Shown in pieces: positions 2,842-42,457 of a stretch of DNA of 43,406 bases. Source of the DNA: an uncultured archaeon (GTDB taxonomy: Archaea > Iainarchaeota > Iainarchaeia > Iainarchaeales > Iainarchaeaceae); contig CAYJRH010000001.1 of NCBI GenBank assembly GCA_964372565.1, positions 1 through 43,406 of the forward strand. Reading direction: 5' to 3'. Each line of letters begins with the position of its first letter. Position 1 is the first letter of the stretch. The position numbers were made by a program, and so were the translations under genes. The notes beneath the pieces are model-generated. The model made no database searches and was not told the DNA's origin. It was given only the letters and a program-made list of their open reading frames with translations.

Positions 2842-3552
2842 GTGAAGGAAAAGAGCGTTGTGCTGGTAGAGTTCACGGGAACCGAAGCCGGAAGCGGAAG
2901 GGTCTTTGACACGACTTCCGAGCAAACCGCCAAGGGCGCAGGTTTTTACAGGGAGGACGGGGTTTACGGCCCGCTTCCTGCCATTGTGGGGCATGGGGGC
3001 CTGTTGCCGGGGCTGGAGTCGGCGCTCATGCTCATGAGCGAGGGCGAGTCTAAAAAGCTGAGGCTTTCCGCGAAAGAGGCCTTCGGCGAGCGCAGGAAGG
3101 AGCTTGTCTTCATCGTGCCTTTGCAGGAGTTCAGGAAGCGCGGGATACAGCCGGTGCCGGGGCTTGTAGTTGATTTGAACGGGAGCTACGGAAGGGTGCA
3201 GACGGTTTCAGGGGGGAGGGTGCGCGTGGACATGAACAATGACCTGGCAGGCAAGGAGGTTGATTATGAGCTGAAGGTTGTGCGCGAAGTAAAAGACCCG
3301 AAGGAAAAGGCGCAGCTGCTCGCGGAGAAATATTTCCCGCTCAAGCGGAAAGCCGAAACAAGGATTGAGGGGGATGCGCTGAAGGTGAAGCTGCCGAAGG
3401 AAATCGCCCAGAAGCTCGGCCCCCTCGCGGCCCCGTTCACAAAAACCGTGAAGGAAGTGATGCCTGAAATCAGGAGCGTTGAGATTGTGGAATCGTTCGA
3501 GGCCGAGAAGGATAAGGCAGATACTGGGAAAAACCGGTCATCCAAAAATTAG
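2842..3552 (+). CDS. FKBP-type peptidyl-prolyl cis-trans isomerase, long archaeal form (FKBP + IF insert + C-terminal domain)
   Basis: VVLVEFTGTEAGSGRVFDTT...GLLPGLESALMLMSEGESKKL...AFGERRKELV...GRVRVDMNNDLAGKEVDYELKV is a SlyD/FKBP26-like pattern. The in-frame GTG at 2842 is preceded by GGGGT and by a TATA-like CTTATAAAG at 2801-2809. The ORF-track ATG at 2719 would overlap the divergent gene's start and adds non-homologous sequence. Confidence 0.85.
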   Translation: MKEKSVVLVEFTGTEAGSGRVFDTTSEQTAKGAGFYREDGVYGPLPAIVGHGGLLPGLESALMLMSEGESKKLRLSAKEAFGERRKELVFIVPLQEFRKRGIQPVPGLVVDLNGSYGRVQTVSGGRVRVDMNNDLAGKEVDYELKVVREVKDPKEKAQLLAEKYFPLKRKAETRIEGDALKVKLPKEIAQKLGPLAAPFTKTVKEVMPEIRSVEIVESFEAEKDKADTGKNRSSKN

Positions 3553-4988: not shown

Positions 4989-7900
4989 GTGGTTATGGAG
5001 TACCTCAAGGAAGTGAAGGAAGTCGTTGCGGCAATCGTGCCGAAGGAAGCCGAGGTCACCTTGGTGGACCTCGAGGGCCCTGAAATCGCAATCTACACAA
5101 AGAAGCCGAAGGTTTTCCACGACAACGAGGATTACGTGCGCGCAATCGCGCACCAGCTGAAGAAAAAAGTCAACATACGCGGCGACAAGTCATTGCTTAT
5201 AGATGAGAACGAGGCGCGCGAAAAGATAATGAAGATCGTGCCTGAAGGCGCGAAAATCTCGGACATACAGTTCACCGAGGCGTTCAGCGAAGTCGTCATC
5301 GAGGCGCTGAAGCCGGGGCTTGTGATAGGCAAGGGCGGAATGACGACAAAGGAAATAATCCTGCAGACGGGCTGGACCCCGAGGATCCTGCGCAGCCCGA
5401 CATCGCCGAGCGAAATCCTCAAGGGCATCAGGCACCACCTCGTGAAATACGCGCCCGAGCGCAAAAAGATACTCCAGGAAACGGCGAAGAAGATTTATTC
5501 CGAGAAGCCCGCGCCGAGCTGGATAAGGCTCACGCCGCTTGGCGGGTTCAGGCAGGTCGGAAGGAGCTGCATAATGCTCGAAACCCGCCGCACCAAAATC
5601 CTTTTGGATTGCGGAATCAACGTTGCGGCACAAGCCCCCGAAGACGCTTACCCCTTCCTTGATGCGATACGCTTCCCGATAAACGAGCTGGACGCTGTTG
5701 TGCTTAGCCACGCGCACATGGACCACTGCGCATTCATCCCATACCTCTTCAAGCTCGGCTATCGCGGGCCCGTGTACCTCACAGAGCCAACGCGCGACCT
5801 CGCGGCGCTCCTGCTCTTCGATTACCTCGACATACTCGCAAAGGACAACAAGGAGGCGCCGTACAGCGAGCGCGACGTGAAGGAAATGCTCAAGTACTGC
5901 ATTGTGCGCGACTACCGCGAGGTAACGGACATAGCGCCCGACATGAGGCTCACTTTCCACAACGCGGCGCACGTGCTCGGCAGCGCTTCGGTGCACCTGC
6001 ACATAGGAGAGGGCGCCCACAACTTGGTGTATTCTCTTGACCAAAAAACTCCGATTACGGTTTTTGACAAGGATGGAAACATGGAAATATGCGGAATAGG
6101 GAAACTTGTCGACAGGGAAATAAAAAAATTCGGGGTCGGAAACGGCTTTGTGGAGGAGGCAGCTAATTTTAGCGGCTGGAAAACTATTGCGTTCAATCCC
6201 CAAACATTAAAGTCTGAATTAGTGGACATAACCTCTTTCATAAGGCACCCGGTAAACGAGGATTTGTTTGAGATATCCACTTCAACCGGAAGGAAAACCA
6301 CGGTGACTGGCTCCCATAGCGTGTTTATGGTGAAAAATGGCAAAGTTGAAAGTGCCATGGCGAAAGACCTGCGTTTGGGAGATTACATCATAGGCTCGAA
6401 AAATCTTGATTTGACTCAAAAGAAACCGCTTATAAAACTGGAAAAAAATGCTTTTGCGCTCAAGTATAGTGGAAAAGAACTTGGGCTTGTTTTGGAAGCG
6501 TTAAGCGGAAAACTGCAAAAATCTTTCCCGCTTCAAGCTGAAAAAATAACGCCTTGGATAAAGGACAGGCTGGAAAATGGGATGTATGAAAACGCGATAG
6601 CGAAAAAGTACGGCGTTTCGCGAAAAACGGTCAGAAAGTATTTTAAAAAACTCGGGATAGGGAAGAATCCAAGGGTAAAAAATGCCTTTCCGGCAGAGGT
6701 GGAAATAACTGCGGGTTTTGCAAGGTTCTTGGGATACTTTATATCTGAGGGGAGCGTCAACAGAAATACCGTAATCATAACGCAATACCGCAAGGAAATG
6801 CTTGAAGACGCAATAGAAATCATAAAATCTGCCTTTGGCATTAATGGAAAAATAGTGAAATACGAAGCGCAATTCTATTCAAAGCAACTTTGCATGTTGC
6901 TGAAGAAAACTCTAAAGTGCGGGGCTAATGCATATGTTAAAAGAATGCCCAAAGGGCTGGCTTTGGCTCCAAAAGAAGTGATTTCTGAATTCCTGAAAGG
7001 GTATTTTATGGGTGACGGTTCTTTTAGGGTCAGGAAAAACGGCAAAGGCATTTCCATAAACGCCGCCTCCAAAAGCAAATTTTTAATTCAGGAAATAGGA
7101 TTCCTGCTTTTGCGCCTTGGCATTGCCCCGACGTTCGAATACAATAAGAGCAGCAAAATGCACAATGTTCATGTCTATGGCAGAAAACAGTTAGAGGTTT
7201 TTTTGTCTAACGCAAAAATCCCGGAGTGGGAAAAGAAACTTTCGGCAAACCCTTCAATCAAAGAAAAAAGCCATTTTGCGGACCGCCTGCCAATCAAGGC
7301 CCTTTCAGAGCAAACACGGGGCGTTTTAGGCAAGACTTCGTGGCAAAACGCCAAATGCTGCGGCAACACGCTTTTAATGAAATTCGGCTGCGGCGACCAT
7401 GAAAAAAAGCTGGTGGAATCGGATTTGATGCTGGATGAAATTGCAAATATTAGGAAAGTGCGGCCAACCGGCAATTACGTCTACGATTTTTGCGTAAAGG
7501 GGTACGAAAACTTTTTGGGCGGCATCGGGCAATTATTCATGCATAACAGCGCGGACATCAAGTACGGGTTCACGAGGCTTTTCAACAACGTTGACATCAA
7601 CTACCCGAGGATTGAAACCCTCATTGTCGAGAGCACTTACGGGGGCAAGGATGATATTCAGACAGCGCGCGAGGAAACCGAGGCGAAATTGCTGCGCGTG
7701 ATACAGGAAACCGTGAACCAGGGCGGCTCCATACTGGTGCCAGTGTTCGCTGTCGGCAGGGCGCAGGAGCTGCAACTTGTGATCGAGAATTTTTACCGCA
7801 AGGGATTCATAGACTCGGAGGTCAAAGTGTATGTTGACGGCATGACAAAGGAAAGCTCGGCAATACACACCGCTTATCCTGAGTATCTGCGCACGGGCGT

Positions 7901-8408
7901 GCAGAAAAGGGTCCTGCAGAACGACTCGCCATTCACTTCGGACATTTTCCAGGTTGCGAAGCCCGAGGATAGGGATTCGATTTGCCAGAACGGAAAGGTG
8001 ATAATCCTTGCGTCGAGCGGAATGCTGACCGGAGGCGCGAGCGTCCAGTACTTCTACAGGCTGGCCGAGAACCCAATTAACACAATTGCGTTTGTCGGTT
8101 ACCAGGGCGAAGGCTCTTTGGGCAGGAAAATCGTGAGCGGCGTGAAGAGCATACCGATTACGGACAATGGCGGGAGGACAAGGAAGCTCAGCATCAACAT
8201 GCGCGTGGAGCGCCTTGACGGTTTTTCAGGGCACTCGGACAGGATGCAGCTCTCAGCTTATGTGCGCAACCTCAAGCCGAAGCCGAAGCGCATACTGACA
8301 GACCACGGCGAAGCGGAGAAATGCATTGATTTGGCGAAGCACTTCTCGCAGAAGTTCGGGATTAGCTCGCAGGCGATAAGGAACCTGGACAGCGTAAGGC
8401 TGAAGTAA
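4989..8408 (+). CDS. fttA: archaeal CPSF1/FttA-type beta-CASP ribonuclease (2 KH + metallo-beta-lactamase + beta-CASP), interrupted by a 505-aa intein
   Basis: The N-terminal KH region carries VIGKGGMTTKEI, and the MBL motif is VLSHAHMDHCAF. NAAHVLGSAS...HIGEGAHNLVY is followed by the intein and then SADIKYGFTRLF, with the C-terminal beta-CASP/MBL ending in GFSGHSD. Extein length is 634 aa. The start is GTG 4989 or ATG 4995. Confidence 0.93.
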   Translation: MVMEYLKEVKEVVAAIVPKEAEVTLVDLEGPEIAIYTKKPKVFHDNEDYVRAIAHQLKKKVNIRGDKSLLIDENEAREKIMKIVPEGAKISDIQFTEAFSEVVIEALKPGLVIGKGGMTTKEIILQTGWTPRILRSPTSPSEILKGIRHHLVKYAPERKKILQETAKKIYSEKPAPSWIRLTPLGGFRQVGRSCIMLETRRTKILLDCGINVAAQAPEDAYPFLDAIRFPINELDAVVLSHAHMDHCAFIPYLFKLGYRGPVYLTEPTRDLAALLLFDYLDILAKDNKEAPYSERDVKEMLKYCIVRDYREVTDIAPDMRLTFHNAAHVLGSASVHLHIGEGAHNLVYSLDQKTPITVFDKDGNMEICGIGKLVDREIKKFGVGNGFVEEAANFSGWKTIAFNPQTLKSELVDITSFIRHPVNEDLFEISTSTGRKTTVTGSHSVFMVKNGKVESAMAKDLRLGDYIIGSKNLDLTQKKPLIKLEKNAFALKYSGKELGLVLEALSGKLQKSFPLQAEKITPWIKDRLENGMYENAIAKKYGVSRKTVRKYFKKLGIGKNPRVKNAFPAEVEITAGFARFLGYFISEGSVNRNTVIITQYRKEMLEDAIEIIKSAFGINGKIVKYEAQFYSKQLCMLLKKTLKCGANAYVKRMPKGLALAPKEVISEFLKGYFMGDGSFRVRKNGKGISINAASKSKFLIQEIGFLLLRLGIAPTFEYNKSSKMHNVHVYGRKQLEVFLSNAKIPEWEKKLSANPSIKEKSHFADRLPIKALSEQTRGVLGKTSWQNAKCCGNTLLMKFGCGDHEKKLVESDLMLDEIANIRKVRPTGNYVYDFCVKGYENFLGGIGQLFMHNSADIKYGFTRLFNNVDINYPRIETLIVESTYGGKDDIQTAREETEAKLLRVIQETVNQGGSILVPVFAVGRAQELQLVIENFYRKGFIDSEVKVYVDGMTKESSAIHTAYPEYLRTGVQKRVLQNDSPFTSDIFQVAKPEDRDSICQNGKVIILASSGMLTGGASVQYFYRLAENPINTIAFVGYQGEGSLGRKIVSGVKSIPITDNGGRTRKLSINMRVERLDGFSGHSDRMQLSAYVRNLKPKPKRILTDHGEAEKCIDLAKHFSQKFGISSQAIRNLDSVRLK
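6033..7547 (+). mobile_element. intein (505 aa) with a LAGLIDADG homing endonuclease, inside aCPSF1
   Basis: It starts SLDQKTPITV (Ser1) directly after ...HNLVY. Block B is VTGSHSVF (TxxH). The LAGLIDADG motifs are FLGYFISEGSV and LKGYFMGDGSF. Block F/G is VYDFCVKGYENFLGGIGQLFMHN, followed by Ser +1 (SAD...). The segment looks AT-richer than the flanking extein by eye. Confidence 0.9.
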
Positions 8409-8556
8409 TGCGAAGCACGGCCCATTGAGCCACAAGGCCAGATAGCCCCCGCCCTTCCGAAGCGGAATACGAAATGGCGAAGCCACCGCCAGCCGCAGGC
8501 TGGCGCCCCGCCCTTCCGAAGCGGAATACGGACTGGACAGCCTAAGGCTTAAGTGA
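8385..8556 (+). repeat. imperfect 24-nt direct duplication of the aCPSF1 3' terminus flanking a 124-nt element
   Basis: CTGGACAGCGTAAGGCTGAAGTAA (8385-8408, the real gene end, LDSVRLK*) matches CTGGACAGCCTAAGGCTTAAGTGA (8533-8556, would read LDSLRLK*) at 21 of 24 positions. Confidence 0.8.
8447..8530 (+). repeat. two exact 25-nt direct repeats with a 59-nt period
   Basis: CCCCGCCCTTCCGAAGCGGAATACG occurs at 8447-8471 and again at 8506-8530. Each copy contains the mini-hairpin TTCCGaagCGGAA. The 34-nt spacer contains the hairpin CGCCAGCcgcagGCTGGCG. Confidence 0.85.
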
Positions 8557-32338: not shown

Positions 32339-33343
32339 ATGCGGAAAGGCATGCTGTTTTCCCTGATGGTTTTCCTGCTGATTTCGATGATATTCGGCCT
32401 TTACATCATATCATCCGACCAGGATTACTCGGTGAACGAGAGCGTGAGTTCGCTGAACGCTTTCAGGCGGGTTTCTGATAAATATGCGAACATACGGAAC
32501 AGCATAGTTGTGCTGAATGCGAATGAGGCGCAGAAGCAGATTTCGCAGAGGATGCTGCCTTTCACTTATGGCATTGACGGCAATGTTTTTTCCGCGCAAT
32601 TTGACACGCCGATTTCCCAGGGGAGGGTAAAAACTTACCTCGAATCGCTCGAGGTATTCAGGATTTTTGTCGAGGACTCGAATTATGAGAAACAGTTTGA
32701 GGGTTTGAATGTTGATGTCAATAGCTCTGGGAATGCTGCGCTTCAGGACGGCAACTGGGACACGAACAGGACGCACGCCTCTTTTTTGGTGCAGCCGCAG
32801 TGCCTCCAGTACACTATAAATGACAAAAACACGATTTTTGGTTTCTCGTGCCCCGACTACAATTTTTCGAATGTGGGGAGAATTGACGTGAACTTCACTT
32901 TTTCAAGCGTGGATTTCAACTCCACATGGTGCGAAATGAATATTGGGGCAGGGCTGCCGTCGGAGAAATCGGATTATTGCTACAATTTCAACCAGGCGTA
33001 CAATCCCGCAGATGGCAACACTTTTGTGAACATCACTCTTTTGGACTCTAACTGCTCACAGTGCGCTCTGGCTGGATTCGGGAACCCGAAAAAAATCAGC
33101 GCGAACTTGAATCCGGCATATCCAAGCAGAATTAAAATAAAATGTGTGCAAAGCGGAGGTGCTGCGTGCACTACACATGACCTGGGCATGAATTTTGGCG
33201 GCACAGTGGCGATTTCATATTCCGGGACAAAGATACCGACAAATGTCTCGCTGACATTTGATTCGCCTATAACCAGCTTCACTTACAGCGACGCCAGCAT
33301 TTCCGTGCGGAACGAAATCTTCGGCACGCGGAGATGGAACTGA
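32339..33343 (+). CDS. pilus-locus protein with a short leader and hydrophobic N-terminus (minor pilin-like)
   Basis: MRKG|MLFSLMVFLLISMIFGLYII. The remaining 300 aa or so are Asn/Ser-rich and extracellular-looking, with several Cys. Confidence 0.6.
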   Translation: MRKGMLFSLMVFLLISMIFGLYIISSDQDYSVNESVSSLNAFRRVSDKYANIRNSIVVLNANEAQKQISQRMLPFTYGIDGNVFSAQFDTPISQGRVKTYLESLEVFRIFVEDSNYEKQFEGLNVDVNSSGNAALQDGNWDTNRTHASFLVQPQCLQYTINDKNTIFGFSCPDYNFSNVGRIDVNFTFSSVDFNSTWCEMNIGAGLPSEKSDYCYNFNQAYNPADGNTFVNITLLDSNCSQCALAGFGNPKKISANLNPAYPSRIKIKCVQSGGAACTTHDLGMNFGGTVAISYSGTKIPTNVSLTFDSPITSFTYSDASISVRNEIFGTRRWN

Positions 33344-34470
33344 TGGGCAAAGGGTTTCCGGCTGCGCTGCTGCTGCCGCTTGTGGTTGCGGCTTTTGCAT
33401 CAGGATGCGCATCGCAGGAAAGCGGGGGCTTTTCCATGGAAGTCGACAAGAGCGCGGCGCTGAGCGGCGAGGAAATCAATGTTTTGGCGTTTGCAAACGG
33501 TTACTCGAACGCTGAAAAAATTGCGCTGGAATACGGGAATGAAAAAACGGAGTTCGCGTGCGGCACCGAAAAAATCTGCAGGGCGTCGGTTTCTTTCAGG
33601 CCGGGCGCAGGCGTGTATTTAATCAAAGCGACATTGCTCGGCAGAAGCGGCATCATGGGCGAAAAATCCGAAAGGATTGTCGTGGTTGATAATGCAACTG
33701 CCGGGTGCGTGAACGGCGCTGAATATGGCAAATGCGCTTCGCAGAGGCCGCTCTATTGCGACAACGGGAAGCTCGTGGACAACTGCGAATTGTGCGGGTG
33801 CAGCCAAGGCCATTATTGTTCCGGCGCAAAGTGCCTGCCGCATGCGGGAAATGCGGAAATTGTAAACGTCGGTTATCCGGAAAGGGCGCTTGCAGGCAAA
33901 GCATTCACGGTGCGCGCAATCATCAAGCCCGATGCCAATAGCCCTGAAGGCGCGGGGTTTGAGCCGGAGCTTATAATTGGCGGAAAAAGTTACGCTTCCC
34001 CGGCAAAAAAAGTTGCGGGCGCAAACGGCGAACTGGAGGCGATGTTTGAAGGGGTGTATATTGCCAGCGAGGGGAAATATGGCATAGAATTGAGGGTTTA
34101 CGCGCTGAACGCGCAGAAAGAGCTTGCCGGAACCTGGTCGAAAAAGGATGCAGTGAATGTGCTTGCAAGCTTTCCCCCGCCTGCCGCGCCTAGCCTGCTC
34201 TCCGCTTTTGCCGAAGGCGATGACGTTGTGCTGAGCTGGGAAACGGTTGAGGGCGCGGCGGGATACAAGCTTTACAGGAGCGTAGATGCGAATCCCGCTT
34301 ACATAGCCTACAAATATGACAGGCCTTTCAATGGAAGCGATGCTTCGGGCGTGGTGAATAACATGGCTGCGGGAACGCATTTTTTTGTGCTGACAGCAAT
34401 TGACGAGTTCGGGCAGGAAAGCGGCTACAGCGAGGTTAAATCGGCAACAATCGGCGGCGGAACAGGTTAA
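33334..34470 (+). CDS. surface lipoprotein-like protein with a Cys-rich module and C-terminal fibronectin type III-like domain
   Basis: LLLPLVVAAFASGCASQ is lipobox-like. CVNGAEYGKCASQRPLYCDNGKLVDNCELCGCSQGHYCSGAKC carries 8 Cys. PAAPSLLSAFAEGDDVVLSWETVEGAAGYKLYRS...GTHFFVLTAIDEFGQES is FN3-like. Confidence 0.7.
   Translation: MELMGKGFPAALLLPLVVAAFASGCASQESGGFSMEVDKSAALSGEEINVLAFANGYSNAEKIALEYGNEKTEFACGTEKICRASVSFRPGAGVYLIKATLLGRSGIMGEKSERIVVVDNATAGCVNGAEYGKCASQRPLYCDNGKLVDNCELCGCSQGHYCSGAKCLPHAGNAEIVNVGYPERALAGKAFTVRAIIKPDANSPEGAGFEPELIIGGKSYASPAKKVAGANGELEAMFEGVYIASEGKYGIELRVYALNAQKELAGTWSKKDAVNVLASFPPPAAPSLLSAFAEGDDVVLSWETVEGAAGYKLYRSVDANPAYIAYKYDRPFNGSDASGVVNNMAAGTHFFVLTAIDEFGQESGYSEVKSATIGGGTG
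34408..34470 (+). repeat. left copy of the 63-nt duplication (the functional 3' end of the 33334-34470 gene)
   Basis: TTCGGGCAGGAAAGCGGCTACAGCGAGGTTAAATCGGC (38 nt) is identical to 35234-35271. Overall identity is 54 of 63. It encodes FGQESGYSEVKSATIGGGTG*. Confidence 0.9.
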
Positions 34471-34527
34471 TGCAGAAAATCTCGCCGGATAACATCAATC
34501 TTAGAGAAATGTTTAAATAAACTATTG

Positions 34528-34539
34528 TATCAATTGATA
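34528..34539. promoter_or_regulatory. perfect 12-bp palindrome TATCAATTGATA between the TATA box and the start of the cassette operon
   Basis: The order is GTTTAAATAA (34511-34520), palindrome (34528-34539), ATG 34551. This is the classic operator position for an autoregulated TA operon. Confidence 0.4.
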
Positions 34540-34550
34540 TAAGTGATTTC

Positions 34551-34841
34551 ATGGGTAAAACAGCCGCGATTTTCAAACAGGAAAACATTCTCCGCTACCC
34601 CAGACTAGATACTGTCCTCATGGTGGAAGAAGCCATCAGAAATGCCAAGGATTACCCAACCAAAGCCAGGCTCTGGAAAAGCCTCCCAAAAAAAATGATG
34701 TACCAGACATTCAATACTATAATTGACTATCTTGAATACTCCGGCAAAATACTTATGGAAAAGGATGGTGCCATAATCTGGATATGGGACCCTGAAGGAG
34801 TGAGAAAACTTCTAGCCAAGAAGCATCTGGTGATTCGGTGA
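34551..34841 (+). CDS. small wHTH-like protein; putative antitoxin/regulator of the cassette
   Basis: 96 aa: ...RYPRLDTVLMVEEAIRNAKDYPTKARLWKSLPKKMMYQTFNTIIDYLEYSGKILMEKDGAIIW. It overlaps the next ORF by GTGA. The specific family is not recognised with certainty. Confidence 0.55.
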   Translation: MGKTAAIFKQENILRYPRLDTVLMVEEAIRNAKDYPTKARLWKSLPKKMMYQTFNTIIDYLEYSGKILMEKDGAIIWIWDPEGVRKLLAKKHLVIR

Positions 34842-35190
34842 AGCAAGAAACTAGGAGAATCATCGTGCTTTTCGTTGATGATAAAACGAAGGAAGCTTAT
34901 GACAAGCTCAAAAGCGGCAAGTTTGAAGACCGCGAATTGTATGACTTCATTAACCGGGCAATAGATGACCTGAAAAAGAACCCGCGCATCGGAATCCCCC
35001 ATTGCCAAAATACAAAATCCCAAAAGAATACATCCAAAAATACGGAGTCAATAACCTCTACAAATATGACTTGCCTAACGGCTGGCGGCTTATCTACACG
35101 CTCAAAGGGAGCGAAGTGGAAATACTCTCAGTAATCCTGGAATGGTTTGACCACAAAAACTATGACAGGCGATTCGGATACAAAACGTAG
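34838..35190 (+). pseudogene. RelE/ParE-like toxin gene split by a 1-nt frameshift next to a C5 run
   Basis: Frame A (34838-...) reads ...AIDDLKKNPRIGIP. Frame B (35002-35190) reads PKYKIPKEYIQKYGVNNLYKYDLPNGWRLIYTLKGSEVEILSVILEWFDHKNYDRRFGYKT, a RelE-like C-terminal core (..WRLIY......V.I......H..Y). The frames meet at ATCCCCCATTGCC (34994-35006). Confidence 0.65.
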
Positions 35191-35233
35191 CTGAATGCGT
35201 ACAAGGGCGGCTAAGTCAAAAAGGCGGTTTGAT

Positions 35234-35296
35234 TTCGGGCAGGAAAGCGGCTACAGCGAGGTTAAATCGGCTTCAATCGGAAATGCGACAGGCTAA
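35234..35296 (+). repeat. right (displaced) copy of the 63-nt gene-end duplication
   Basis: It would encode FGQESGYSEVKSASIGNATG*. No upstream ORF is attached to it. Confidence 0.9.
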
Positions 35297-35334
35297 CCAG
35301 AAGACGTTTCAGTAAAATTCAAAGGACAATTGAC

Positions 35335-35544
35335 TCACTTAGCCAGCACTGAAAAAAGTTCTTTTTCCGAAACAAAATTACCATTCTTGATGCCTTGCCT
35401 TATATTTTCCAGTTCATTAAGTTCCTTCTTGCCCAGTTTCACTTCTGGCACTAGCCTTTTTTCGATATGTGAAATCTTTTCCTCAATCCTGGAAATCTTC
35501 CTGTAAATGTTCTGAAGAACAACGCTTTGCGCCAACCAAATCAC
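35335..35544 (-). CDS. small coiled-coil protein, antitoxin-like, no adjacent toxin
   Basis: 69 aa: ...RIEEKISHIEKRLVPEVKLGKKELNELENIRQGIKNGNFVSEKELFSVLAK. It resembles short archaeal antitoxin-type proteins. The family was not verified. Confidence 0.4.
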   Translation of the reverse strand: MIWLAQSVVLQNIYRKISRIEEKISHIEKRLVPEVKLGKKELNELENIRQGIKNGNFVSEKELFSVLAK

Positions 35545-35744
35545 CCTAATTAATTATGGCGCGCAGAAATATAAAAACCACTCGCCAAATGCGCGAAAAA
35601 CCGGCAGGTATGAGGCCCATTTTTCAGGTATTTAACCAGTTTTCTGGCAATGCCAGGCTCCAGCCGAATTATACGGCAATCCCACCCCCTCAGTATAATA
35701 ATATAAATGTGGGAAGTATTACAGAAGAAAAGAAGCGTGGTAAA

Positions 35745-37850
35745 ATGGGATTCCTGGACTCTATTGTGCGCGGCCTGAACGAGTTTTTCGCCCCGAAAAA
35801 GGCCCAAAAAAAGGAATTGCAGGGCACGAATCTGAAAAAGAGCGCCGCGCTACAAATCAGGGAGGAGCTCAAGGCGTTCCCGAAGAGGGGCCGGCTTCCC
35901 GGCGAGGAACTTGGCGAGGAGTTCGGGGAAGCGCCAGATGTTTCCGGCGGCATTGAAAGGCAGCCAATGTTACAGGTGGCTGAGGAGTTTGGGGACATCG
36001 GGGAAAGAAAAGATGCCGGCATTTTTTTTGAGAGGAGGAAAAAGGGTACGCGTAAGCCGCGCATGAAAAAGCGCCCCGGAAAATTCGGCCGCGGAATGCG
36101 GAAACCGGCACATGGCAAGCCCCGCGGAAAATCGGCGGTGCGTGGGCCATCGGCAAGGCGCTTGCATGCGGGGCGAGGCGTTCCGGCAAGGCGGGCGCAG
36201 GCGGGGCGCGGCGCGGCAGAAGTTATTCAGGCCGAAGGCTACGGGCTGTCCGCCGCGAAAAGGCGGGTGCTGGAAAAGGAAATGGAAAAGTACAAATCAG
36301 TCGTGCGCAGGCTGAGGCGCGATGTGAGGCAGCTGAGGCAGGAGATTTCCACGCAGAAAGTGCAGCCCCATGAGGCGCTTGGCGGGGTGCAGAACCTTTA
36401 CGGCGAAATCAAGTCACAGGGCACCGACATTGACCGCGACATAAAGAACACGAAATCGCTCATGGACTTTTTGGAGAACAGCTTCCTCACTAGGAAAATC
36501 GACGAGCGCGCTTTCAGGGAAAAGATGCAGGAGTACAACGAGAAGCTGCACCTGCTCTCCATACAGAAGAAGGACCTTGATTCGCAGAAGAATGAGCTGC
36601 GCGTGACATCGGAAAAAATCCCCACAAAAACGCCTGTCACGCTCGACATTATCGCGCGGACAAAGGATTTGGAGAGCCTGATTGCGAGGCACGAGGCGGC
36701 GATTGAGAGGATTGAAGGAACGCGTGGCGCTCTGCGTGAGATGCCGGCGCAAACGGTTATTATTGCGCAGCCGCGGCAGGTTTACGCCCAGCTGCCTGAG
36801 GCCGGCCAGAGGAAGCCATGGAGCTTTTTCGGCTTTGGCCAGAAGCCTTTGGAAGGCGCGGAACAGCCTCCTGCGGAAAAATACCCTGAGGCTCCGGGTG
36901 AACAGCCAGATACTGGGACAGCTGAGCCGCAGCCAGCAAAGCATGCGGAAGAAATGAAATCTCCGGCAGCTCCGGCGAAAACAGGGGGCGCTTCGAAAAA
37001 AATTGCGCAGAAACAACCTGCCGCATTTGGCGGAAGAAAGCCCGCGAGAATCCTGCCGCCCGCTCCCGCGGCCAAATCGGCAGGAGCCGCGGAAAAATAT
37101 TTCCCGCGTTTCAAGGAATCGGAACTCGGCACGCCGTCATTAACCGCAAAGCCGCGGCCAGCTTCTTCAAAAGCAAAACCTGTTATGCAGGAGGCGGAAG
37201 AACCGCAGAAACAAAAGGCGCCCCTCAGATTTTTCGGGAAGCCTGATAAACCAAGAACGGATACTGAGCGGGTGGATGATTTCATTGCGCAAAGTGTCGG
37301 CCCCGGGACAAGCCTGGAGAGGGTAACCGAACTCAACAGGAAAATCGGGGATCTCATGCAGAAGTATGACATTTCAGAGGAGGCGCTCGAGGCAAGGCTG
37401 GCAATCGCGAGGCAGGAAAGCAAGGGCGATATAATCGATTCGATGAACAGGCTTGTCGGGCTTATCGAGGCGGAAAGGAGGCAGGGCGAGCAGAAGACGG
37501 AAAGGATTGAAACCGCCATGAGGTTTACCGAGGCGACGGCTGTCCAGGAGGAGGCCAAGGGGGTGGAGACTGAAATAAGGAAAAACGTCATAGTAACCGA
37601 TTTTGACAAGGTGTATTCTATGGTTCAGGGGTCGGGGAGAATCGGCGTCAATGAGATTTCCAGGCAACTCGGGATTCCCAAGGGCAAGGTTGAGGATTGC
37701 CTTAATGTGCTCAGGAGAGAGAAGCAGGTGGAGGTCATCTATCCCGCATTCGGGGACGCGGTCGCGGAAACCATGGATTACCGCATCAGGGCGGAGCTGG
37801 AGAAATTGAAGAAGAAAAAGGAGCAGGCAATGAAAGGGGAGATAAAATGA
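35745..37850 (+). CDS. 701-aa low-complexity/coiled-coil protein with C-terminal winged-helix domain, translationally coupled to the pilus ATPase
   Basis: ATG 35745 is preceded by TATAATAATATAAA (about 35692-35706). The protein has an Arg/Lys/Gly-rich stretch (RRKKGTRKPRMKKRPGKFGRGMRKP...), two coiled-coil segments and a Pro/Ala-rich linker. The C-terminus IGVNEISRQLGIPKGKVEDCLNVLRREKQVEVIYP is wHTH-like. Its stop overlaps the next start (ATGA). Confidence 0.65.
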   Translation: MGFLDSIVRGLNEFFAPKKAQKKELQGTNLKKSAALQIREELKAFPKRGRLPGEELGEEFGEAPDVSGGIERQPMLQVAEEFGDIGERKDAGIFFERRKKGTRKPRMKKRPGKFGRGMRKPAHGKPRGKSAVRGPSARRLHAGRGVPARRAQAGRGAAEVIQAEGYGLSAAKRRVLEKEMEKYKSVVRRLRRDVRQLRQEISTQKVQPHEALGGVQNLYGEIKSQGTDIDRDIKNTKSLMDFLENSFLTRKIDERAFREKMQEYNEKLHLLSIQKKDLDSQKNELRVTSEKIPTKTPVTLDIIARTKDLESLIARHEAAIERIEGTRGALREMPAQTVIIAQPRQVYAQLPEAGQRKPWSFFGFGQKPLEGAEQPPAEKYPEAPGEQPDTGTAEPQPAKHAEEMKSPAAPAKTGGASKKIAQKQPAAFGGRKPARILPPAPAAKSAGAAEKYFPRFKESELGTPSLTAKPRPASSKAKPVMQEAEEPQKQKAPLRFFGKPDKPRTDTERVDDFIAQSVGPGTSLERVTELNRKIGDLMQKYDISEEALEARLAIARQESKGDIIDSMNRLVGLIEAERRQGEQKTERIETAMRFTEATAVQEEAKGVETEIRKNVIVTDFDKVYSMVQGSGRIGVNEISRQLGIPKGKVEDCLNVLRREKQVEVIYPAFGDAVAETMDYRIRAELEKLKKKKEQAMKGEIK

Positions 37851-40800
37851 CCGACAAGCTGTTCAAGGAATACACCGTTGAAACCGAGGGCATAACCGTA
37901 GGCGTGAAAATCGTTTACAGGGAGGGGGAATTCGTAAAAGCCTATATCCTTGACATTCCTGAATACGGGGCGGGAACGCGGGCGCTGCTCGAGAACCTGA
38001 AGCGGCAAATAATAATGGACGCCAATGTGAAGGCCGAGAAGCTGCTTGACCCGAAATTCATAGAAATCCTCAAGCAGCAGTTCAGGGAGAAGGCTGATGC
38101 CATTCTGAAGCGCGAGCTCCCGAAAATCGAGGCGCACACAAAAGGCTCGCTCATAGGCATACTCATCCACGAAATGCTCGGCCTCGGAAAAATAGAGTTT
38201 TTGCTCGCGGACGGCAACCTCGAGGAAATTGTAATTAACAATGCCTCCGAACCCGCGTGGGTTTACAGCAAGGAATTCGGCTGGCTGAGGACAAACGTGA
38301 ACATTGAATCCGAGGAAATGATACAGAACTACGCCAACATAATCGCGAGAAGGGGAGGGAAGCAGATAACAGTGCTCACGCCCCTGCTTGACACCCATCT
38401 TGTGACGGGCGACAGGGCAAACGCAACGCTCTTCCCGATAAGCGGGAAGGGAAACACGCTCACAATCAGGAGGTTCAGGAGAGACCCTTGGACAGTGACC
38501 GACCTCATAAACAACAAGACCGCAAACAGCGATGTAATGTCTTTGGTCTGGCTGTGCATCCAATATGAGATGAACATGATACTCTCAGGGGGAACAGCTT
38601 CGGGAAAGACAAGCTTCCTGAACGTGTGCCTGCCGTTCATACAGCCGAACCACCGCGTGATAACAATCGAGGACAGTGTTTCCGGAGAAAGCGAAATTCT
38701 ATATGAGCATGAAGGCCATGTTGTGAAATCAACGGTTGGGGAATTGGTTGACGGCATAATCGAGGATGATACGCTAGGCGATTGTGTTGTTGAAAACGAT
38801 TATGGCATAAAAATCCCGAGCGCCACAAGAGAGGGCAAGGTCGAGTGGAGAGAACCGAGCCATTTCATAAGGCACCATGTGAAGAAGGATTTGCTGAAAA
38901 TAACCCTAAAGAGCGGAAGAATTGTTGAAGTCACGCCGGATCACTCGTTGTTTGGCATCGGCGATGATTGCATCCTAAGCCAAATCAGCGGCTCGGAGTT
39001 AAAGGAAGGCTCTTGGCTCGCGACCCCAAGAGAACTTGAATGGGCTGGGGAAAAAGTTGTTTTCAGGCTCAATGAACACATCAGCGCCTTTGAAGGCTGC
39101 TTTGTGAAAAGCGTCGAAATCAAAAATCTTATCATGGAAAACAAAGCATTGCTGGCCCAGCATTATTCACGCAACACAATACAGGCAAATTCAAGAAGAG
39201 GGGTGGCTTCCACCGAAATGATTTTGACGCTCCAGAAGGCGCCCACAACCGGATGGATTACATCAAGGCTCGGCACAAAAATACCTATGGAAATTGAGGT
39301 GGACAATGACCTTGCTTGCTTTGCTGGCCTGTGGCTTGCGGATGGGTGTTATGACAAGAACAGCGTACTGGTCTCGGTTGTTGAGGAAGAGGCAAGGGAT
39401 GTGGTGCGCAGGGTTGCTGCAAGGTTTGGCACTGAACCAAAAATGCACTCTGATGGCGTAACACTGATGGTTAACTCCAAGCCTTTCAAGCGCCTCATGG
39501 AAAATGTCCTCGAGCTTAAGGGCAACGCATACACCAAAAAGATGCCTGGGTGGTGCTTCAGGCTTGGCAAAAAAGAACTTGCATCACTTCTGAGCGGATA
39601 CTTTTCAGGCGATGGATGGGTGAGGAAGAATGATATTGCAATAGTTTCGTGCTCTGAACAGCTGCTAAAGGATACACAGACCGCACTGCTAAGGTTCGGC
39701 ATACCATTTCGAATAAGCTGGAAAAAGCGCAAGGACAAAACCTATGAGGCTCGCGTTTCCGGCACCGAATTCCTGAGGAAATTCCTCCAAGAAATAGGTT
39801 TTGTGATAAACAAAAAGAACGCCGCATCAGAAAAATGGCTCACGCAGAATAGCCACGATGTTTCAGATGTCATACCGCTGCCAAAGAAATTCTACAAAGA
39901 GATAAAAAAAGCAAGGAAAGTGGAGGTCGGAACCGGCCTCACTTACAATAGCTGGAAAAGCTGGAGCTCGGCTTACATGAAGGAAAATATTGGAAGGAAC
40001 ACGCTGCAAAAATTTGTGCGCACTTACGGGAATTCCCTGCCAAAGGAGCTTGAGACTGCGGCTTTCGGCGACATTTTTTGGGACAAGGTCATAGCAATTG
40101 AAAGAAGGGGATTCGAAGGGTTCGTATATGACTTCAGCGTGCCGGGAAACGAGAGTTTCGTATGCAATAATATAATATGCCACAACACTCGCGAACTTAT
40201 TTTGCCGGATTTTTTGCACTGGGTTCCTATGACCACGAGGGAGCCTAATGCTGAAGGAAAGGGCGGGGTGTGCCTCTACCCGGGAAATTGGGTAGTGCTT
40301 GGCAACGGCGAAATAAGGGAAATATCAGAATATGCAGAAGAAAAGCTCAAAGCCGGTGAGAAATTCAAGCCAGAAAGCAATGTTACTTGTGTGATGGGGG
40401 ATGAAACGCTCCTTGCCGGAGACCCCGAAAAAATGAGTTATAGAAATGAAAAAATAGCTACGGTATCAAAAGTGACTGAGAGGGAATTCATCTGCTCGGT
40501 CAAATGCCAGAATGGGGAGAGCGCAGTGTTGACAGAGAATACTAGGCTTCCGGTGGTGGGAGAAAAAGGTGAAGTGGAATTGCTTTTGCCAAAGGAAATA
40601 AAGGCAGGAAAATATTACCTCCCGGTATTCACAAAGATAGATGTCGAAGGCTCTTTGCAGGAAATAGACGCAATTGAAATATACTCGAAAGGAAATTATT
40701 ATACCCTTGATGTTTTCCCTGAATTTGAAAAAATGGTTGCAGAGGCAAAAGAGAGGGGGGGAACACTCAAAAGCATTGCAGCACAGGCAGGCATCTCTAG

Positions 40801-42457
40801 ACAAGCTTTGAACTGGCAAATGAAAAATAAATTAGTTAAAATCCCCCTGCTCAAGGAGTTGGTGGATAAATCAAAAATAATGACGCGAACGGAGATTAAC
40901 CAGAGAATCAACGAAATAAGGCCGGGCTCATGGAGCGCAAAATATGCCACGGTGCCAAAAGTGTGTGATGAGGAACTGGCTTATCTGGCTGGCTTTCTCC
41001 AGGCGGAAAAATGGATTGGGAGCAACAAAATGGTGGTTTCGCAGAAAGAAGAAATACCATTCCTTGAAGAACTGTTCCTGAAACTTTTCAGGATAAGAGT
41101 TAGTAAAGGGCACGATAAGACCCAATATGGCGAATACAACAAATACACAATTCTTTCAAAAACCGTTACAAGAATGTTCGCGCAATTGTTCGGCTTAAAA
41201 AAATCAAAGGAATGCAGGGTTCCGCGCATAATACAGCGCTCAACAAACAAGGTAATTGCGTCTTATATCTCTGGTTATATTGACGGGGATGGCTCGGTAA
41301 GCGAGAAAAAAATATCGCTTGCCGTTGGGAATAAAGAAACGGCCATTGAATTCAAATACCTCCTGCACAGGCTTGGCATAAACAGCAGGATACTGGAAGG
41401 GGTGCGAGCATTTGAGGTGAACATCTGCACAAGGCAGGACATCAAAAAAGCCGCGGAAATCATGGAATTCAGGGTAGAAAAAAAGAAGAAAAACGCGGAA
41501 AAAATCGGAAAGACTATTTATGCGCACAATACAAAAAGAAACATTGTTCCGGCACTTTTATTGAGGAACTTCCTAAAAGATTTTAACCTCACAACCGCGG
41601 AAAAAAAAGAGCGTTTTTACCACACAACTGGCAATGGCACGGGCATGAAGAAAAGCTATGTGAAACAGCTCATTGAAACGCAAAAAATTGATGAAAAAAC
41701 CGCGCAGAAAATTTCTCTGTTTTTGAGGGATGATTTGGAATTCGCAAAAATTACAGGGGTGGAAATAGTCCCTAATACTGAAAATATCCCCACTTATGAC
41801 CTCACACCTGAAAAATCGACCTACTTCATGGGTGGGATAAATAATTTTACTATGATTATGGACACAATGCTCGACCTCCTTGTGAACTCGCTGAGGCAGA
41901 GGCCTGACAGGATAATTGTCGGCGAAACAAGGAGGCAGAGGGAAGCCGAGGTGATGTTCGAGGCAATGCACACAGGCCATTCGGTTTACACCACGTTCCA
42001 CGCGAACACCGCGGAGGAAACAATCAGGAGGTTCACCAACCCGCCAATTGACATTCCGCCCACGGTGCTTGATTCCGTGCATTTGAATGTCGTGATGTTC
42101 AGGAACAGGAGGATAGGCGCGAGGAGGATACTGCAGGTCGCGGAATTCATCCCTGAAAAGAGGGGCAGCGAGGAAACGCTCAAGGCAAACACGCTTTATC
42201 GCTGGAGGCCGGGGAACGACGTCATAATCAAGGATTCGGAAAGCATCAGGCTTTATGACGAGCTCTCCATGCACACGGGCCTGACTTATTCTGAAATCGG
42301 GGAGGATATTCTCCAGAAGAAGAGGATACTCGAGTGGCTTGTCAAGAATGACCTGCACAACATCAATGATGTCGGAAAAGTCATGGCAAGATACTACCTA
42401 AACAAGGAAGACGTGGTTGAAGTCGTTGAGAAGGACAAGAAGCCTGATGCCCTATGA
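37847..42457 (+). CDS. type II/IV secretion-system ATPase (archaeal FlaI/PilB/VirB11-like) interrupted by two inteins
   Basis: Walker A is ILSGGTASGKTSFLN and the Asp box is RVITIED|intein-1|TRELILP. ...EPNAEGKGGV|intein-2|TMLDLLVNSLRQRPDRIIVGETR carries Walker B, followed by the His box AMHTGHSVYTTFHA. The extein totals 501 aa. Confidence 0.92.
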   Translation: MTDKLFKEYTVETEGITVGVKIVYREGEFVKAYILDIPEYGAGTRALLENLKRQIIMDANVKAEKLLDPKFIEILKQQFREKADAILKRELPKIEAHTKGSLIGILIHEMLGLGKIEFLLADGNLEEIVINNASEPAWVYSKEFGWLRTNVNIESEEMIQNYANIIARRGGKQITVLTPLLDTHLVTGDRANATLFPISGKGNTLTIRRFRRDPWTVTDLINNKTANSDVMSLVWLCIQYEMNMILSGGTASGKTSFLNVCLPFIQPNHRVITIEDSVSGESEILYEHEGHVVKSTVGELVDGIIEDDTLGDCVVENDYGIKIPSATREGKVEWREPSHFIRHHVKKDLLKITLKSGRIVEVTPDHSLFGIGDDCILSQISGSELKEGSWLATPRELEWAGEKVVFRLNEHISAFEGCFVKSVEIKNLIMENKALLAQHYSRNTIQANSRRGVASTEMILTLQKAPTTGWITSRLGTKIPMEIEVDNDLACFAGLWLADGCYDKNSVLVSVVEEEARDVVRRVAARFGTEPKMHSDGVTLMVNSKPFKRLMENVLELKGNAYTKKMPGWCFRLGKKELASLLSGYFSGDGWVRKNDIAIVSCSEQLLKDTQTALLRFGIPFRISWKKRKDKTYEARVSGTEFLRKFLQEIGFVINKKNAASEKWLTQNSHDVSDVIPLPKKFYKEIKKARKVEVGTGLTYNSWKSWSSAYMKENIGRNTLQKFVRTYGNSLPKELETAAFGDIFWDKVIAIERRGFEGFVYDFSVPGNESFVCNNIICHNTRELILPDFLHWVPMTTREPNAEGKGGVCLYPGNWVVLGNGEIREISEYAEEKLKAGEKFKPESNVTCVMGDETLLAGDPEKMSYRNEKIATVSKVTEREFICSVKCQNGESAVLTENTRLPVVGEKGEVELLLPKEIKAGKYYLPVFTKIDVEGSLQEIDAIEIYSKGNYYTLDVFPEFEKMVAEAKERGGTLKSIAAQAGISRQALNWQMKNKLVKIPLLKELVDKSKIMTRTEINQRINEIRPGSWSAKYATVPKVCDEELAYLAGFLQAEKWIGSNKMVVSQKEEIPFLEELFLKLFRIRVSKGHDKTQYGEYNKYTILSKTVTRMFAQLFGLKKSKECRVPRIIQRSTNKVIASYISGYIDGDGSVSEKKISLAVGNKETAIEFKYLLHRLGINSRILEGVRAFEVNICTRQDIKKAAEIMEFRVEKKKKNAEKIGKTIYAHNTKRNIVPALLLRNFLKDFNLTTAEKKERFYHTTGNGTGMKKSYVKQLIETQKIDEKTAQKISLFLRDDLEFAKITGVEIVPNTENIPTYDLTPEKSTYFMGGINNFTMIMDTMLDLLVNSLRQRPDRIIVGETRRQREAEVMFEAMHTGHSVYTTFHANTAEETIRRFTNPPIDIPPTVLDSVHLNVVMFRNRRIGARRILQVAEFIPEKRGSEETLKANTLYRWRPGNDVIIKDSESIRLYDELSMHTGLTYSEIGEDILQKKRILEWLVKNDLHNINDVGKVMARYYLNKEDVVEVVEKDKKPDAL
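38675..40186 (+). mobile_element. intein 1 (504 aa) with a LAGLIDADG endonuclease, in the ATPase Asp box
   Basis: It starts at Ser1 (SVSGESEILYE). Block B is VTPDHSLF. The LAGLIDADG motifs are FAGLWLADGCY and LLSGYFSGDGWV. Block F/G is VYDFSVPGNESFVCNNIICHN, followed by Thr +1. Confidence 0.9.
40271..41863 (+). mobile_element. intein 2 (531 aa by extein alignment), non-canonical: no block B His, ends ...MIMD instead of ...HN
   Basis: It starts at Cys1 (CLYPGNWVVLGNGE). The block B position reads LTENTRLPVV (T-E-N-T). The LAGLIDADG motifs are LAGFLQAEKWIG (degenerate) and ISGYIDGDGSV. Block F is TYDLTPEKSTYFMGG and the end is INNFTMIMD, followed by Thr (TMLDLL...). The end was set by matching GGV|TMLDLL..LRQRPD to the FlaI-family G-E-[IV]-T-M-x-D-L-L pattern recalled from memory. 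Confidence 0.75.

Follow-up and report, generated by a model that had tools for sequence, protein, structure and literature searches.

The lambdoid phage 21 and the element e14 integrate into icd of Escherichia coli with a phage-borne substitute for the 3' end of that gene. The ICESt1/ICESt3 family at fda of Streptococcus thermophilus reportedly provides a case of accretion of ICEs (integrative and conjugative elements) and IMEs (integrative and mobilizable elements) at the 3' end of a protein gene. A definition of the cis-mobilizable element (CIME) is given in PMC5704250. In Prochlorococcus, tycheposons are tRNA-targeting islands with partial-tRNA repeats (bioRxiv 10.1101/2020.12.28.424599), and for Archaea elements with type I and type II integrases, tandem integration and integrases supplied in trans have been described (PMC7253208). 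Integrons and clusters of attC sites lacking integron integrases (CALINs) have also been reported in Archaea (PMC9668308). Here we describe a locus that resembles these systems in different respects. It lies in a stretch of 43,406 nt, called the window in the following, which is the forward strand of contig CAYJRH010000001.1 (assembly GCA_964372565.1) of an uncultured archaeon of the Iainarchaeaceae (Iainarchaeota). In this window a toxin-antitoxin (TA) cassette of less than 1 kb stands directly behind a lipoprotein gene and is bracketed by two copies of the 3' end of that gene, and similar brackets around related cassettes were found in other archaeal genomes.

The original prediction, made from the letters of the window, was that the last 63 nt of the lipoprotein gene recur behind the cassette and that both copies end in a stop codon in the same frame, and this is what was found. 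Of the 63 positions, 54 agree between the two copies, namely all of the first 38 nt and 16 of the following 25, and both copies close with TAA in the same frame, the left one after KSATIGGGTG and the right one after KSASIGNATG. In a repeat search the pair came out as 34405-34470 and 35231-35296, 66 nt long with 85% identity, and it was the longest direct repeat of the window. The 38-nt exact match is far beyond chance for 43 kb. All 9 mismatches are confined to the last 25 nt (P = 8.6e-5 under uniform scatter), and in the left copy it is this mismatched part that faces the insert; their codon-position pattern (2:2:5) was not significant alone and was not used. The repeat terminates exactly at the stop codon. 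The lipoprotein open reading frame (ORF) is intact and reads to the TAA at 34468-34470 within the left copy, with a terminus that differs from that of the orphan, so the part of the prediction that spoke of a replacement terminus stood, but not evidently as a new mechanism, the principle being already known. The insert between the copies (34471-35233) is 763 bp long and, together with one repeat copy, makes up a unit of about 826 bp; its GC content is 0.418 versus 0.511 for the window, in agreement with its description as AT-richer.

One explanation of an orphan gene end is that it is the last remnant of a tandem paralogue or other local duplication of the lipoprotein gene, which was mostly replaced or deleted as TA cassettes accumulated. 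The site has indeed suffered deletions, the toxin gene of a second TA cassette being truncated 20 nt from the orphan tail, and both tails have retained the frame and the stop codon. However, no homology to the lipoprotein gene was found upstream of the orphan copy, before 35231, and the abrupt start of homology and the identical-then-diverged pattern are unlike a decaying paralogue. The same bracket is, moreover, found around the cassette at many unrelated loci, including ones with tRNA fragments. A paralogous origin of the orphan is therefore very unlikely.

The other explanation that concerns the repeat itself is that it was made by the assembler. A chimeric or collapsed join at the short repeat had been named in advance as something that would undo the prediction, and it was not borne out. 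Four contigs of short-read Logan data from other runs, which belong to the same population (99.9% identical), break off in the right copy, at 35242 or 35264, and taken alone these breaks would favor an artefact. But the Logan contigs are, as we assume, built from a k=31 graph, and in such a graph a real repeat of 38 nt, or the single-nucleotide polymorphism (SNP) at 35263, would cause branching, which is why breaks are expected there. The independent NCBI assembly GCA_947085725.1 (L182) spans the whole arrangement, including a frameshift in the toxin gene, with 4 SNPs in 4556 nt, of which the one at 35263 is inside the second repeat copy. Since L182 carries the same structure independently, the structure is not an assembly artefact. 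In addition, the copies differ at 9 positions, and more than 15 assemblies from different groups show comparable brackets. An artefact is thus extremely improbable and already essentially refuted. The features of the locus are collected in Table 1.

Table 1. Features at and around the duplicated 3' end of the lipoprotein gene, in window coordinates
Feature	Position	Strand	Remarks
Lipoprotein target gene	33334..34470	+	378 aa; signal and Cys lipobox, Cys-rich module, FN3-like C-terminal domain (predicted)
Left repeat copy (attL-like)	34408..34470	+	functional 3' end of the lipoprotein gene, ...FGQESGYSEVKSATIGGGTG, then stop
38-nt identical block	34408..34445 and 35234-35271		presumed crossover region
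Left spacer	34471..34496		26 nt; no homology to any related cassette locus
Conserved cassette module	34497..35198	+	promoter, operator, two genes; ~80% DNA identity to cassettes in other contexts
TATA-like box	34512-34520	+	TTTAAATAA
Palindromic operator (candidate)	34528-34539	+	TATCAATTGATA
Antitoxin gene	34551..34841	+	96 aa, predicted winged-helix DNA-binding protein, intact
Toxin pseudogene	34838..35190	+	RelE/ParE/YoeB superfamily; +2 frameshift
Right spacer	35196..35233		38 nt; homologous neither to related cassette loci nor to the lipoprotein gene
Right repeat copy (attR-like)	35234..35296	+	orphan gene end, ...FGQESGYSEVKSASIGNATG, then stop
Second TA cassette remnant	35316..35577	-	promoter region, antitoxin-like gene, ~7 codons of toxin; homologues 75-98% identity

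The TATA-like box and the palindrome that had been predicted as promoter and operator of the insert are both present, and the core of the palindrome, ATCAAYTGAT, stands upstream of 71 of 156 homologous cassettes. The antitoxin has 1294 homologues, the best with 93% identity, and where these are named nearly all are from DPANN-type archaea (Iainarchaeota/Diapherotrites, Micrarchaeota). It gave no match in Pfam or NCBIfam. Its AlphaFold model (predicted local distance difference test score, pLDDT, 74.5) has three helices and a beta-hairpin, and the best structural matches of the model are winged-helix regulators of the Fur/PerR/MarR/MecI type, all of them weak. Going by the model, the antitoxin is a predicted winged helix-turn-helix (wHTH) protein, and the palindrome in its promoter region, its putative operator, is conserved.

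The antitoxin and toxin genes are co-oriented and overlap by 4 nt, as they usually do in relatives, and behind the wHTH gene a 117-aa toxin gene is found in almost all of 84 loci and, among 80 metagenome loci, in 60. The prediction of a RelE-like toxin gene was right as to the superfamily but not as to an intact gene. In the family, 14 of 16 members match PF05016 ParE_toxin (best E = 2.4e-8) and 8 match PF06769 YoeB_toxin, and the best PDB profile match for the toxin is YoeB (E = 0.012). The toxin gene of the window is split over two frames, 34838-35134 and 35002-35190, and compared with L006 and other intact 117-aa homologues the lesion is two extra C, CCC having become CCCCC, in the run at 34996-35000. 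When the frame is repaired the window toxin matches PF05016 with E = 4.4e-4 and 21.2 bits, which is just below the 23-bit cutoff. Judged by its sequence, the cassette is a predicted type II TA module by gene pairing and by toxin superfamily, with the toxin gene not intact, and it appears to be a decaying module in which the antitoxin gene is intact and the toxin is dead. Loss of the toxin while the antitoxin is kept is the usual decay path of a TA module. Homology to the other cassettes begins at 34496-34505 in all relatives, and neither terminal inverted repeats nor conserved cassette termini were found. We had considered the sharp limits of homology (34497-35198) as a sign that the module itself moves, and dropped this argument because at ~80% DNA identity neutral flanks would be unalignable anyway.

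It was also predicted that the locus belongs to a family of elements that insert at the 3' termini of ORFs. Loci with a homologue of the antitoxin, 80 from genomes and 80 from metagenomes, were examined by comparing the upstream flank with the downstream flank by blastn, and a bracket was called tight when a direct repeat of at least 25 nt lay within 250 nt on both sides. Tight direct-repeat brackets were present at 7 of 75 evaluable genome loci versus 26 of 7418 control positions (0.35%), the control positions being sliding and non-independent, and there were no inverted brackets among the 75 evaluable genome loci. Two further tight brackets (L052, L064) have low-complexity repeats and six are in metagenomes (L099, L129, L146, L171, L173, L174); in total, tight brackets were found in at least 15 other loci. 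These loci are mostly in different genomic contexts and are spread across Iainarchaeota, Micrarchaeota, Aenigmatarchaeota and others. The bracketing repeats are 26-208 nt long and 77-100% identical, with 98-100% identity in L051, L081, L030 and L099, and their sequences are unrelated between loci. The idea of an element family therefore stood in that brackets recur in other archaeal genomes, but ORF 3' termini are not their specific targets, and a restriction to such termini was contradicted by promoters, a gene 5' end, intergenic hairpin regions and tRNAs that are also duplicated.

The likeness to tRNA-targeting elements that had been proposed was found at two loci, where the repeat is a tRNA 3' end. 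The repeat of L051 is 53 nt with 100% identity and consists of the 3' 47 nt of tRNA-Leu plus 6 nt, and that of the complete genome AR10 is 26 nt and extends from the T-arm to the 3' end of tRNA-Gln, so that in both a complete tRNA stands on one side of the cassette and an orphan 3' piece of a tRNA on the other. Where identity starts within the tRNA, at the last anticodon-loop nucleotide in L051 and in the T-stem in AR10, is compatible with an integrase and was set aside as not decisive. The contigs of the AR10 population have a single context throughout and differ only by a 127-nt indel beside the left repeat. This indel, seen at 3775-3901 of L085 when compared with L091 (CP010424), lies directly beside the orphan tRNA-Gln fragment and is flanked by AATGA, and farther out in L091 the cassette, the tRNA and an OB-fold gene stand between the two copies of an 81-nt direct repeat (3138-3218 and 5172-5252).

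Protein genes are concerned in other cases. The repeat of L174 comprises the last 10 codons and most of the stop codon of a convergent gene, and its copies have three differences, GAG/GAA, GTT/GTA and TAG/TAA, all of which are silent or stop-to-stop. In L064 the repeat comprises the ribosome-binding region and the first nine codons of the downstream gene; other repeats are promoter-like or hairpin-rich intergenic DNA. In five cases a gene has its 3' end toward the insert and the repeat stops at that end or not more than 6 nt from it, and because the repeats end at gene ends the copies are best read as homologous gene ends joined by recombination and not as a duplication from a staggered cut.

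Such a duplication is what one more alternative proposes, namely that an undescribed insertion process, with wide staggered nicks or replication template switching at promoters, tRNAs and gene ends, pasting of the cassette and subsequent filling of both overhangs, makes long target-site duplications of variable size. It would account for the continuous range of lengths, for the several nearly or fully identical pairs, for the lack of a recombinase in cis, and for the use of one repeat by different TA cassettes in L023, as reinsertion at a hot spot would give. But a staggered cut has no reason to stop at gene ends, and yet the repeat ends at a stop codon in the window, at a second gene of the window (aCPSF1, see below) and likewise in L174, and in AR10 and L051 it ends 1-6 nt beyond the tRNA. 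Neither the clustering of the mismatches in the window nor the silent differences of L174 fit the neutral drift of an orphan copy, and integrases adjoin some of the repeats. We therefore hold this process to be quite improbable.

Some loci tell how the repeats behave over time. In L023 a PIN/ribbon-helix-helix (RHH) TA cassette and a wHTH-toxin cassette are separated by three copies of one repeat, and this represents accretion at one site. Two sister species of Micrarchaeota share an insertion, at 6051-7227 of L030 and 9850-10689 of L032, downstream of tRNA-Lys and with flanks that are ~84% identical; the target region is a run of 17-nt hairpins. Its flanking repeat measures 208 nt (98.6% identity) in one of the two species and 53 nt (90.6%) in its sister, and there are species-specific changes common to both copies as well as one left/right-specific change common to both species. 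This pattern indicates an old insertion that predates the species split (~16% flank divergence) and has undergone gene conversion between its copies.

Looser brackets that enclose one or two extra genes were seen at L001/L095, AR10, L066, L025, L035, L078, L079 and L155, and a check of the larger brackets for hidden integrases found none, the cargo being Fic, a TrmB-type regulator, AlbA_2/Schlafen, PIN, a Zn-ribbon TA and a methyltransferase. In L001 (5722-7658) a 110-nt direct repeat brackets an islet of ~1.8 kb with the cassette, a 102-aa ORF and a methyltransferase gene; the corresponding direct repeat in L095 (2564-4068) is 209 nt. The repeat, with a variable hairpin at its center, is located upstream of a DsrE-like gene. 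In the Aenigmatarchaeota contig JAWADS010000014.1 (L033, 1689-7637) six copies of a ~100-nt repeat, 0.6-1.5 kb apart, stand upstream of the cassette, and this repeat carries a TATA-like box and the palindrome GATAAAATTCAAAGTAATTTTTATC.

The prediction that no integrase or transposase is present held for the window: no such domain was found in the window ORFs tested by Pfam, PF00589 included, and motif and tblastn screens of the window were negative. The surroundings of the other cassettes (~1.7 Mb of loci, 6-10 kb on each side of the cassette) were searched with a motif screen and tblastn, with confirmation by PF00589. Genes with PF00589 lie 28 nt past the toxin in L136 and 61 nt past it in L046, and one lies within ~1.5 kb of the cassette in L061 and in L147; all six integrase-like matches are at most 3.5 kb from the cassette. 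L129 and L136 are 95% identical over the cassette and the left flank, and their divergence sets in precisely where the right repeat ends; beyond this point L129 continues into a resident gene and L136 into an integrase gene. What is seen in L136 is the arrangement of an integrase-bearing element integrated at one att (attachment site) copy of a bracketed cassette. An example of the repeat sequence that flanks the recombinases of L136 and L079 is TTGAAACCTTATAGGGATTTATAAAA.

A different layout is that of L079 (Micrarchaeota JAZDFO010000028.1, 5765-14000). Here a tyrosine recombinase gene with a Zn ribbon (5765-6970, minus strand) heads an array in which five or six structured repeats of ~60-220 nt stand between cassettes, these being AlbA_2/Schlafen, a PIN TA, the wHTH-RelE cassette, another AlbA_2 and one whose function is unknown. 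In its layout the array resembles an integron, without its repeats being established as attC, and it deserves comparison with the archaeal integrons of PMC9668308.

How did the lipoprotein gene come to have two ends? In our estimate there is about an even chance that the locus is an att-flanked, integrase-less insertion of the Campbell type, similar to a CIME, for which a tyrosine integrase was supplied in trans or was lost from a decayed parent. Incoming DNA with a homologous copy of the gene end would have recombined reciprocally with the chromosome in the last 63 nt of the gene, with the crossover inside the 38-nt identical block, and a crossover of this type would necessarily duplicate the gene end. 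The last 25 nt of the left copy would then be the incoming replacement terminus, by which the lipoprotein gene stays intact, and the displaced resident terminus would be stranded as the orphan at 35234-35296. The catalyst would be a tyrosine integrase of an autonomous element that uses the same site, or one that was lost as a larger element decayed, and at a later time the +2 frameshift would have killed the toxin while the antitoxin gene remained intact. The unit would thus be an archaeal counterpart of a CIME in which attL and attR are retained and integration genes are absent. We favor a Campbell-type event because 38 identical nt are followed by a diverged tail, the stop codon marks the limit of the repeat and the orphan is not preceded by homology to the gene, and we take an integrase as the likeliest catalyst because of the tRNA and gene-end targets, the adjacency of integrases and the accretion arrays. 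The model predicts that the empty site would read ...GACGAG, the 38-mer, TTCAATCGGAAATGCGACAGGCTAA and CCAGAAG..., that the junction of a circle or tandem would read ...GGCGGTTTGA, the 38-mer, AACAATCGGCGGCGGAACAGGTTAA and TGCAGAAAA..., and that orthologous lipoproteins would end in ...SIGNATG, that is, that the orphan is the native terminus.

Several observations weigh against an integrase-mediated insertion. The window contains no integrase, excisionase or integrase fragment, for which the two spacers, 26 and 38 nt long, leave no room. When metagenome and viral collections were searched with a degenerate form of the 38-mer there were 0 matches, so that in these neither the 63-nt repeat nor an autonomous element with the lipoprotein tail was found, and the cassette family is absent from IMG/VR. 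No empty site was found, the assemblies of the same population being all occupied or broken inside the repeat. Repeats that are locus-specific and up to 208 nt long would need many integrase specificities or a relaxed one, and the cassette lacks conserved termini or terminal inverted repeats. None of the ~17 repeat-bracketed units of other genomes contains an integrase or its remnant; had larger elements decayed gradually, some of these units should keep integrase traces. Finally, the concerted repeats of L030 and L032 show stability rather than ongoing mobility.

Many of these points are accommodated by the main rival, host homologous recombination without a site-specific recombinase, in which DNA of a related lineage that carried the cassette downstream of its orthologous lipoprotein gene was taken up. 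The topology would be the same and the two tails would be orthologous gene ends of two lineages, brought together either by a single crossover of a circular fragment or by a homologous crossover combined with an illegitimate join 63 nt upstream of the resident stop, a route known as homology-facilitated illegitimate recombination. This accounts for polar mismatches, with identity up to the crossover and divergence after it, for repeats that end where conservation between lineages ends (stop codon, tRNA 3' end), for the silent-only differences of L174, and for lengths of 26-208 nt with sequences unique to each locus. It also fits the missing conserved cassette termini and the missing integrase in the bracketed units and in the window. 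Suitable donors exist, since there are related species with the cassette in one and the same position (L030/L032, L016/L018). For the repeats, which vary and are specific to each locus, and for the lack of an integrase in cis, homologous recombination is at least as good an explanation as an integrase. What it leaves unexplained is the origin of the first repeat-flanked or gene-adjacent copy at many unrelated sites, and it does not predict the clustering of integrases near cassettes and repeats or the breakpoint between L129 and L136. The 36% divergence of the tail implies a distant donor, with which a crossover on 38 nt would be inefficient, and several repeats are in intergenic sequence that is not conserved. 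On balance we regard homologous recombination alone as a serious contender that is nonetheless rather unlikely.

Beyond the integrase-mediated, Campbell-type insertion that we favor for the window, a broader and more speculative proposal can be made, which we consider unlikely as it stands. The wHTH-RelE/ParE cassettes and the TA cassettes that share repeats with them could be distinct, integrase-less, miniature (0.7-1 kb) mobile cassettes of DPANN and related archaea with a dedicated insertion route, which would duplicate 26-208 nt of the target and rebuild the interrupted gene 3' end, tRNA 3' end, promoter or gene start. Their accumulation in some genomes would give rise to integron-like arrays beside a tyrosine recombinase that uses repeats unlike attC.

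The lipoprotein gene is the final gene of a tightly packed upstream operon. Its product is identical to database entry P0001, and an exact-protein lookup gave no match. No orthologue was found among 5.8 billion proteins, where the matches were the protein itself and two matches to the Cys module, and the genomic context of P0003 is unrelated. The label FN3 that the original prediction gave to the lipoprotein was not confirmed, there being no Pfam match above threshold. The window is otherwise ordinary chromosome, with genes for the proteasome, aCPSF1, PGK, GAPDH and TYW1 and for a pilus/secretion ATPase and platform protein. Rfam found nothing in the window and in L001, and ARAGORN found no tRNA in the window.

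The cassette had been described as separating the pilin operon from its ATPase and platform genes, but it is not the sole insert at this site. The AT-rich stretch extends past the right repeat copy to ~35555, and here lies the second TA remnant, with a GC content of 0.375 and convergent with the first cassette. Its antitoxin-like gene (35335-35544, minus strand, 66/69 aa) is intact, the toxin remainder is at 35316-35337, and its DNA homology is limited to 35577-35316. Intact forms of this cassette (66 aa plus 91-94 aa) are present in L183 (4607-5088) and L186 (6001-6482), and no flanking repeats were found around them. Between the lipoprotein gene and the gene that follows in the operon there thus lie two convergent predicted TA cassettes, both with dead toxins.

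A second, miniature case of the same topology had been claimed at the end of aCPSF1 and was found there. The last 24 nt of that gene (8385-8408, LDSVRLK and stop) recur at 8532-8555 (LDSLRLK and stop, TAA having become TGA) and bracket a GC-rich insert of 123 nt with a direct repeat of 31 nt inside it. No significant fold was seen for this insert. Its first 21 nt come back at the end of the contig (43385-43405), 44 nt after a T2SSF-like gene; in the other loci the 21-mer did not occur. The aCPSF1 ORF (4989-8408, 1139 aa) and the secretion/pilus ATPase ORF (37847-42457, 1536 aa) are far above the usual length, and this length alone suggests possible intein insertions.

If the favored explanation is true, very small, streamlined archaeal genomes gain and keep selfish TA modules as att-flanked units of less than a kilobase, and host genes would remain undamaged, a substitute for the gene end being supplied by the incoming DNA. 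The recurrence over Iainarchaeota, Micrarchaeota, Aenigmatarchaeota and others would offer a handle on gene flow in DPANN archaea, where mobile elements are poorly known. The signature, a cassette with locus-specific flanking repeats and sometimes an integrase, can be searched for by computer, and candidate attB sites and candidate integrases (for example in L136 and L079) are flagged here. There is also a caution for annotation in that the C-terminus of the lipoprotein may be foreign in origin and that orphan gene-end and tRNA fragments mark old insertions.

We can now return to the described systems. Some of them are ruled out for the window. A transposon or insertion sequence was rejected given the absence of a transposase and of terminal inverted repeats, the diverged 63-nt repeat and the lengths of 26-208 nt among loci. 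An SSV-type (type I) element was rejected, as there are no int(N)/int(C) stumps, the spacers are of 26 and 38 nt and the window has no integrase similarity. An integron or attC reading of the window repeat was rejected as well, since the repeat forms no hairpin, shuffled sequences folding better than either copy on either strand (z +1.6 to +2.1); on inspection the window repeat has none of the integron core motifs R'' (RYYYAAC) and R' (GTTRRRY), and there is no integron integrase in the window. Integron cassettes are similar in being small TA cassettes that bear promoters, and the array of L079 resembles them with its repeat-separated cassettes and a tyrosine recombinase at one end, but the repeats of the window are derived from the target and locus-specific and not borne by the cassette. 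The tRNA-targeting elements have in common with the present loci a full tRNA and an orphan fragment (L051, AR10), repeat copies between successive integrations and degenerate members without an integrase, whereas the target in the window is a protein gene and the units hold a TA pair only. The likeness to phage 21 and e14 lies in the insertion within the 3' end of a gene, in the supply of a diverged terminus that is equivalent in coding and in the native terminus that is orphaned on the far side; these are, however, full prophages or elements with their own integrase, whereas the insert of the window is 763 bp without a recombinase.

The closest likeness is to CIMEs. The window unit is a short segment bounded by putative attL and attR at the 3' end of a protein gene that is intact, without integrase or transfer genes, and the arrays of L023 that share an att repeat and the integrase-bearing element beside a bracketed cassette in L136 resemble CIMEs and accretion. 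It differs from them in being archaeal (DPANN-type), only ~0.8 kb long and with TA genes as sole cargo, in having no known parent element for the locus, and in its longer and more diverged repeats (63 nt, 85%); mobilization in cis and excision are hypothetical here. With its bounding repeats, a target gene that seems to have been restored and no integration or transfer genes in between, the unit can be called a probable CIME-like element. The principle is the known one of integrase-type or Campbell-type integration in which the element restores the gene end, and it is not evidently a new mechanism. What is new is the miniature size, the content of TA genes only without an integrase, the DPANN-type hosts and the recurrence across many genomes.

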